A DNA stretch of 64,000 nucleotides, taken from Minisyncoccia bacterium (GTDB lineage: Bacteria > Patescibacteriota > Minisyncoccia > Phycocordibacterales > UBA9973). Within the stretch, counting starts at the first letter, position 1; each line of letters starts with the position of its first letter. This document shows, in pieces, positions 27,637-27,767 of this stretch. The stretch spans positions 217,319 to 281,318 of the forward strand of contig CBFHKH010000001.1 in assembly GCA_965656375.1 (NCBI GenBank), in the 5' to 3' direction. Both the position numbers and the translations under genes were made by a program. The notes beneath the pieces were generated by a model, which was not told the DNA's origin, did not search any database, and saw only the letters and a list, made by a program, of their open reading frames with translations.

Positions 27637-27767
27637 AAAATTAGTTCTTAAGAAAGGTCTTTCGCAGGAGATTAGAAAATAAAATATGTAATCAGATTAT
27701 TATTTTCTTGATCGACGAGAAGTTCGCTGGCGAAGCTTTGCCAGACAGATTGCCTTTCGAGAGAAGC
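27637..27767 (-). repeat. ~130-nt intra-operon repeat element, copy A (atpD-atpC spacer)
   Basis: About 80% identical to 36552-36680, including AAGAAAgGTCTttCGCAG, TTAGAAAATAAA, TATTATTTTCTTGAtCGACGAG and TTTCGAGAgAAGC. Confidence 0.6.

Follow-up and report, generated by a model that had tools for sequence, protein, structure and literature searches.

The atpD-atpC and rpmE-prfA spacers of a Patescibacteria genome carry copies of a dispersed palindromic repeat

The 64-kb stretch of DNA analyzed here (hereafter referred to as the window) carries two similar segments, one in the spacer between atpD and atpC (copy A) and one in the spacer between rpmE and prfA (copy B). The original prediction described them as roughly 80% identical over about 130 nt, as unlikely to be coding, and as sharing a terminal helix that is maintained by compensatory change. 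It offered three candidate roles, namely an RNA processing or stability element inside operons, a small RNA, or a MITE-like insertion, and proposed that further copies be sought genome-wide and that their termini be inspected for terminal inverted repeats and target-site duplications. This raises the question of whether the two segments serve the genes between which they lie or whether they belong to a repeat that occurs there as it occurs elsewhere. The homologs of the AtpC protein encoded in the window (39% G+C) are annotated as ATP synthase epsilon from Nomurabacteria or Paceibacterota, and the window was therefore placed within the Patescibacteria.

Extent and gene context of the two copies

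Comparison of copy A to the window by blastn recovered copy B with 83% identity over 88 nt (E = 4e-20) and a second block with 87% identity over 23 nt, while a covariance model of the family (R1; see below) scored copy B at 93.6 bits (E = 8.4e-21) and copy A at 61.3 bits (E = 2.4e-12). The similarity of the two segments is therefore real and far beyond chance, which excludes chance similarity as an explanation, although the figure originally given was somewhat generous, as the two cores are only 72% identical when aligned globally (143 columns). No third copy was identified in the 64-kb window, either by blastn with copy A or with R1. The nearest relative of copy A is an element in the atpE-atpF spacer of another genome (L209:8191-8326; 84% identity), and copy B is 80-86% identical to long forms from other genomes. 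Judged from these identities, the two window copies represent different subfamilies, each nearer to copies in foreign genomes than to the other.

The core of copy A (positions 27638-27773, minus strand) is a long form of a divergent subfamily with a G+C-rich P2 hairpin (CUGGC..GCCAG), and the core of copy B (36552-36686, minus strand) is a canonical long form directly 3' of rpmE. Both cores are enclosed by outer stems, such that the repeat is larger than originally described and forms hairpins of approximately 160 nt. In copy A, the outer stem (GAGUUUUU.. / ..AAAAAUUUC) extends the hairpin to positions 27626-27785 (minus strand), and no U-run follows the stem. In copy B, the outer stem (CUAAAAAAUCU / AGAUUUUUUAG) extends it to positions 36540-36698 (minus strand), beginning at the first base past the rpmE stop codon, and the resulting order of A-run, stem, and U-run is terminator-like. 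The outer stem of copy B ends in UUUUUU; a simple terminator scan calls neither copy, given that its 8-nt loop limit excludes both by design. The ends of copy A pair in the predicted RNA fold (-38.2 kcal/mol; z = -3.05 relative to shuffled sequence), and the RNA fold of copy B is at -49.3 kcal/mol (z = -6.58), with none of 200 shuffles being equally stable.

Copy A is located downstream of atpD (ATP synthase beta; 27793-29142; Pfam ATP-synt_ab, E = 3e-73) and upstream of atpC (ATP synthase epsilon; 27167-27610; Pfam ATP-synt_DE_N), and copy B is located downstream of rpmE (ribosomal protein L31; 36699-36914; Pfam Ribosomal_L31, E = 2e-29) and upstream of a gene encoding a prfA-like peptide chain release factor (35463-36404; Pfam PCRF and RF-1). 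All four genes are on the minus strand, and the Pfam assignments thus bear out the placement of each copy between co-directional genes. The description of both as lying inside operons holds for atpD-atpC but not for rpmE-prfA, where the flanks are terminator-like and where a putative extended -10 promoter-like box (TGTTATAAT; 36416-36424, minus strand) was read 11 nt upstream of the prfA start codon. The same box was found 3' of the hairpin T-run at loci L004, L011, L013, and L194, as well as at sites that lack the element (L196, L198, and L201). Because prfA has its own promoter-like box, copy B is not an intra-operon element. Copy A, which lacks a U-run, is a true intra-operon insertion.

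Several other features were observed around these genes. A second hairpin of approximately 110 nt (AAAAAGAACAUAUUCGAAGUAAUCUGCGC...GUGCGAAUUACGGAGAAUAUUGUUCUUUU; 36415-36530, minus strand) is located between copy B and the prfA promoter-like box and is unrelated to the repeat. It is absent from L004, L011, and L013, where the box lies directly 3' of the element, and it was rejected as a second repeat family, as neither the window nor the collected loci contained a further copy. Close relatives have additional small open reading frames (ORFs) in their ATP synthase operons that lack Pfam hits and have no counterpart in the window (L001:6099-6491, L011:8030-8422, L011:6743-7081, and L013:9788-9994); they encode products of 130 aa (atpG-atpD spacer), 112 aa (atpA-atpG spacer), and 68 aa (atpD-atpC spacer). 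In L004 (9738-10000) and L011 (9813-10000), a clear G+C-containing terminator hairpin is present 3' of atpD, followed by unrelated sequence, which in L011 includes another long palindrome, and then by atpC. Tight coupling of atpC to atpD is therefore not universal in this group.

Distribution, fold, and covariation of the family

Related contigs were fetched via AtpC homologs as a first route to relatives of the repeat, and three of these (L004, L011, and L013) contained a related palindromic element in the rpmE-prfA spacer. A scan of one genome per bacterial species (species representatives) with a pattern derived from the shared blocks identified approximately 50 true copies, all in Patescibacteria assemblies labeled as Nomurabacteria, Paceibacterota, Paceibacteria, Parcubacteria, or 'Saccharibacteria'. 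Matches among the Burkholderiales were set aside, as they comprised a fixed 66-nt match in G+C-rich DNA that is unrelated to the repeat and that looks like a conserved coding region; the matches that remained were attributable to chance. The covariance model R1, built on 42 aligned copies, identified 60 copies at 47 loci in approximately 45 Patescibacteria (Paceibacteria/Nomurabacteria) assemblies, with pieces of 8-20 kb examined per genome. The densest loci were L128, with five copies in 8 kb, and L114 and L164, with three copies each (R1).

Screening of the whole window against Rfam at gathering thresholds yielded two tRNAs and nothing else, and screening of both copies and one short-form copy on either strand at E values up to 10 yielded only sub-threshold chance matches. 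No match to the repeat was detected in phages or plasmids by blastn or in viral contigs with a strict pattern; a loose pattern returned 93 matches in viral contigs, apparently by chance. Full-text search of the literature yielded no account of a repeat of this kind from Patescibacteria. Collectively, these observations indicate that the two window segments are copies of a previously undescribed dispersed palindromic repeat family of the Paceibacteria (Patescibacteria).

Copies of the repeat are short (92-98 nt; consensus AAAAUAGCUCUUCUCGAAAUGCACACAUAAUUUUCUGCUGAAAAUUUGCUCUGCUCGGCCCGUCGGCCUGCGCAAGGCAUUUCUCAAAGACUAUUUU) or long (129-136 nt, including both window copies), with one variant of 169 nt, and these size classes differ only in the apex of one hairpin (P3). 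All copies share a common fold. The closing helix comprises three segments, AAAAUAG/CUAUUUU, UCUU/AAGA, and GAAAUGC/GCAUUUC, with a bulged C after the first and a small internal loop after the second. It leads to a three-way junction with conserved unpaired bases before P2 (CACACAUA), between P2 and P3 (UUGCUC), and at the final position (AG). P2 is a short hairpin on this junction, while P3 comprises UGC/GCA and GGCC-CGUC-GGCC and takes insertions at its apex that generate the short, long, and 169-nt forms.

Standard pairs occupy 96.8% of cells in the 60-copy alignment, and the closing helix, which counts as terminal inverted repeats, is paired in 96% of cells when considered alone. All 25 modelled pairs exhibit changes on both sides (301 cells), a level of covariation that none of 500 shuffles reached, and pairing falls to 42-56% when partners are slid by one to three columns. 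The compensatory change originally noted between the copies (GAAAGG/CCTTTC in copy A versus GAAATG/CATTTC in copy B) is present and is one of many across the family, where the pair concerned is U-A in 24, A-U in 17, G-C in 17, and C-G in 1. P3 covaries as GGCC/GGCC, GGGC/GCCC, GGUGC/GCACC, and GCUC/GAGC and, in the long form, as GCU/AGC, GAU/AUC, and ACU/AGU. The maintenance of a helix by compensatory change, predicted from two copies, is thereby established for every modelled pair.

A structure that is selected in the RNA of one strand is expected to tolerate G·U pairs and not A·C pairs. Among the pairs of the alignment, 1433 cells are Watson-Crick, 8 are G·U, and 20 are A·C. Given that pairing is nearly purely Watson-Crick and that G·U pairs are rarer than A·C, the helices lack the wobble signature of one transcribed strand, and the pattern fits complementarity that is kept at the level of DNA or in either strand. 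Thus, of the features that would be expected of a strand-specific structured RNA, covariation is present, but tolerance of G·U pairs and a consistent orientation (see below) are lacking.

The junction bases and hairpin loops are kept across genera. A plain MITE needs no conserved junction or loop bases, which argues for a specific partner; the conservation points to one that recognizes the sequence, whether a protein or a function of RNA or single-stranded DNA, and that is either a mobilizing enzyme or a host factor. Coding was rejected, in agreement with the original prediction, since the indels between copies have lengths not divisible by three (forms of 92, 93, 94, 97, and 98 nt) and since copies contain no start codon or ORF and occur on both strands. 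It follows that the conserved 'peptide' seen when the window was first read is a by-product of conserved DNA.

Insertion sites, orientation, and flanks

Among 53 copies examined, all are intergenic except for one that overlaps with a predicted ORF. With the nearest ORFs as reference, 12 copies are in sense and 15 in antisense orientation, while 11 are located between divergent genes and 7 between convergent genes; there is no orientation bias towards flanking genes. Many copies begin 6-30 nt from a stop codon, and their neighbors are housekeeping genes (grpE, dnaK, dnaJ, recA, ftsK, efp, rplK, nusG, nusA, tig, clpP, rny, and xerC/D).

Comparison of orthologous spacers reveals that the element is present at some and absent from others. 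Between atpD and atpC, the element is present in the window and in L172 and L184 (atpD 86% identical to that of the window) but absent from two closer relatives, L001 and L008 (atpD 95-96% identical), in which the spacer measures 17 and 9 nt, respectively; L004, L011, and L013 contain other inserts at this position. The empty atpD-atpC sites show no hairpin into which the element could have inserted. The rpmE-prfA spacer contains a sense element in the window and in L011, L193, L194, and L197, an antisense element in L004, L013, L176, and L224, and only a simple hairpin in L196, L198, L201, and L202. Likewise, a spacer between a gene and a tRNA contains a long form in L127 that is in the opposite orientation to the short form in L139, L174, L186, and L190, with homologous flanks in L127 and L139. 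The element is thus polymorphic (present or absent) at orthologous sites among close relatives. An element dedicated to particular operons, whether for RNA processing or stability or as a small RNA, does not agree with the occurrence of copies in dozens of unrelated spacers, with antisense copies as frequent as sense copies (15 versus 12), or with their opposite orientations in the same rpmE-prfA spacer of related genomes.

At empty rpmE sites, an A-run precedes a hairpin with a stem of 8-20 bp and a small loop, and the hairpin leads into a T-run and immediately thereafter into a TATAAT-type box for prfA. Filled rpmE sites retain the A-run, the T-run, and the box, with the element enclosed between the two arms of a shorter stem. 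Read side by side, these sequences indicate that the outer inverted repeat at this site is in all appearance the old terminator, with the element in its apex. In more distant relatives, other long structured palindromes occupy the rpmE-prfA spacer (L205:482-585, L206:439-563, L207:378-480, L210:10225-10346, and L195:1685-1826), and these differ in sequence (e.g., UUCUCCUCUUGAGGAGUAC...CCCCUCAAGAGGGGAA). Palindromic inserts in general, and not this element alone, settle in the rpmE-prfA spacer.

Pairing usually runs past the AAAUAG...CUAUUU ends of the element, for a mean of 10 bp counted from TAG/CTA, and these outer inverted repeats differ from copy to copy (e.g., CTTCTTC..GAAGAAG or CCCA..TGGG). 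In 23 of 60 copies, the left flank carries an A-run and the right flank a T-run, which is the frame of a bidirectional terminator, while the reverse polarity is seen in 7 of 60. The arrangement at the rpmE sites accounts for this frame, although not every copy can be read in this way. No direct repeats or target-site duplications were seen in the flanks of copies, which are instead reverse complements of each other; duplication of TA or of another direct target was considered and fits one copy (L013) and not the others. The proposed inspection of termini therefore had a divided outcome, in that long terminal inverted repeats are present but target-site duplications are not, and copies are many but far from identical.

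Some outer stems recur at different loci, including TTGAAAATTT in L149, L172, and L184 and GTA..TAC in L141 and L152, which suggests that part of the flank may travel with the element. Alternatively, the palindromes may have been extended after insertion by template switching. No autonomous parent was identified, in that no unpaired 5' or 3' end of the element lies 0.2-4 kb from a partner in the 8-20 kb pieces examined per genome, and no transposase was found among the neighbors of copies in the sampled loci.

Probable nature of the repeat

We consider it likely that the family is a new palindromic repeat comparable to MITE, ERIC, and Correia elements, that is, one that is dispersed, non-coding, non-autonomous, and kept at the level of DNA. 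The features on which this reading draws, namely family membership, the fold and its covariation, the distribution of copies and their lack of orientation bias, their presence or absence at orthologous sites, and the pattern of their flanks, are observed directly; from the distribution alone we infer that the repeat is mobile. Of the roles originally offered, the MITE-like insertion is the one that the evidence favors, but the absence of target duplications and an unusually conserved interior set the family apart from such elements as commonly understood. These same features, i.e., the lack of a target-site duplication and of an autonomous partner in the sampled loci and the conservation of unpaired junction bases and loops across genera, together with the recurring outer stems and the empty atpD-atpC sites without a target hairpin, count against the reading of the family as a MITE/ERIC/Correia-like repeat.

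ERIC (or IRU) elements of Enterobacteria are imperfect palindromes of 127 bp. The repeat resembles them in being an imperfect palindrome of about 100-130 bp that is found in intergenic and mostly transcribed spacers in either orientation, that occupies a given spacer in some related species and not in others, that retains pairing through compensatory changes, and that has size variants generated by insertions at a fixed internal site. It differs in that it derives from an unrelated phylum, in that its core is a three-way junction rather than a simple hairpin, and in that its flanks are inverted repeats, often terminator-like, with no TA duplication seen. Correia elements (CREE/NEMIS) of Neisseria and other MITEs such as RUP and Nezha are likewise short and non-coding, with long terminal inverted repeats and with an internal segment by which their long forms differ from their short ones. 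These elements are often co-transcribed with neighboring genes as hairpins, and those of Neisseria are substrates of RNase III. The many dispersed copies of the present family (92-169 nt, without an ORF, and with terminal inverted repeats) agree with a classical MITE. However, Correia elements and classical MITEs have a TA target-site duplication and a recognizable parent IS family, neither of which was seen in the loci sampled here, and the interiors of MITEs are usually without covariation, whereas the internal hairpins of this family covary.

REP, REPIN, and BIME elements, which are mobilized by RAYT, are also palindromic, present in multiple copies downstream of genes, and maintain structure in single strands, and their hairpins can stabilize mRNA. 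Yet REPINs comprise two inverted short REP units with a variable middle, whereas the middle is the most conserved part of the present repeat, and no RAYT gene was identified in the sampled loci. Intrinsic (Rho-independent) terminators are similar in that many copies, including copy B, are located in a frame of A-run, stem, and U-run directly after a stop codon and in that relatives without the element have a plain terminator at the rpmE site. In contrast, the conserved three-way-junction insert of 95-135 nt is foreign to ordinary terminators, and copy A has no U-run. Integron attC sites occur in arrays of gene cassettes beside an intI integrase, whereas the present copies are single between housekeeping genes, with no cassette array or intI in the loci examined.

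Selection for a function in host RNA, with the repeat acting in cis as a structured processing site for RNase III or RNase Y, a stabilizer of mRNA 3' ends, or an enhancer of termination, would account for the very strong covariation in all helices, for folds that are more stable than shuffles (z = -3.05 and -6.58), for junction and loop sequences that are conserved across genera, and for the location of copies in the spacers of highly expressed housekeeping operons, often with terminator-like flanks. Such a function is nonetheless rather unlikely, because sense and antisense copies are equally frequent and alternate at orthologous sites, because G·U pairs (8) are fewer than A·C pairs (20) with no strand favored, and because the element is missing from the same spacer in the closest relatives. 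A symmetric role that any long hairpin could fulfill would in turn leave the conserved asymmetric junction unexplained. That the copies are instead independent small-RNA genes, each with its own transcription unit, is very improbable even though their compact fold (95-135 nt) is conserved and even though they are found in both orientations to their neighbors: no conserved promoter-like sequence is present inside or upstream of copies, the flanks of which are unrelated, many copies begin within 6-30 nt of a stop codon, and Rfam yielded no match on either strand.

The strict Watson-Crick pairing, a closing helix in which a bulged base and an internal loop are conserved, the insertion at palindrome centers without target duplication, and an apex as variable as the terminal structure of attC sites raise the further possibility that the repeat is a recombination site recognized as folded single-stranded DNA, or comprises the ends of a new hairpin-targeting element, and is acted upon by a site-specific recombinase or HUH-type enzyme, as for integron attC or REP/RAYT. 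We regard this as highly unlikely, since no integrase, RAYT, or transposase is consistently located beside copies, the single XerC/D-like gene (L114) is of the ordinary housekeeping type, copies are single among housekeeping genes rather than in cassette arrays, and the strand bias that single-strand transposition usually leaves is missing. A broader reading, in which the repeat is neither a passive MITE nor a mere hairpin but a new kind of structured mobile unit or recombination site that acts as a folded single strand of either DNA or RNA, would have the repeat insert precisely at the dyad centers of hairpins such as terminators without target duplication, retain its pairing through hairpin-templated repair, and bind an enzyme of the Patescibacteria through its junction; this, too, seems unlikely.

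As a MITE/ERIC/Correia-like repeat, the family would spread or be exchanged as DNA, and its copies would survive where a compact genome tolerates them, namely in intergenic spacers and above all at the tops of palindromic, terminator-like hairpins. Insertion in the tops of palindromes would leave each copy flanked by its own inverted repeat and not by a direct target duplication. Recombination between the two arms would probably flip copies in place, and the repeat would have split into subfamilies that are shared among genera. Copy B would then enlarge the apex of the terminator hairpin of rpmE, with the promoter-like box of prfA lying separately downstream, and copy A, which is presumably transcribed through, would be an insertion into an atpD-atpC junction that is normally 9-17 nt. 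Read-through of copy A would add a hairpin of 160 nt to the atp mRNA at this junction, where RNase III could cleave it or where it could shield the 3' end of the upstream RNA. Analogy to Correia and ERIC elements makes either effect plausible.

Patescibacteria genomes are among the smallest and most compact, yet this conserved repeat may take up a noticeable share of their scarce intergenic DNA and is found even inside ATP synthase and dnaK operons. It would also supply essential mRNAs with long hairpins. The family provides a ready marker for strain typing and for breaks in assemblies of these uncultured organisms, and its hairpin-centered, duplication-free pattern of insertion could lead to an unrecognized mobilizing enzyme. 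Both window copies should be annotated as repeat elements and not as operon-specific regulators.

Possible traces of rearrangement were observed at several loci. In L184 (117-188, minus strand), approximately 40 nt separate the atpD stop codon from the element, and the end of this stretch (GAAGGAAAAGCACCTTGA) resembles the 3' end of atpD in L172 (GAAGGGAGCACTTTGA); judged from this resemblance, the element looks as if it had arrived with a piece of donor flank. The same stretch of approximately 40 nt contains a CUGAUGAG...CGAA string, for which a hammerhead ribozyme is raised as a question. A remnant of 28 nt in L141 (3777-3804) consists of the initial 21 nt of the element fused to AAUUAUUUUAC, which resembles its 3' end, and has the same GTA..TAC outer bases as the full copy in that locus (L141:1069-1169), and it represents either an internal deletion or an excision footprint. 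Lastly, an inverted solo 3' end of the element (AAAAUAGUUCUUAAAA; L209:8150-8190) is located directly upstream of the copy-A-like element in that locus and may be the trace of a nested or rearranged insertion.
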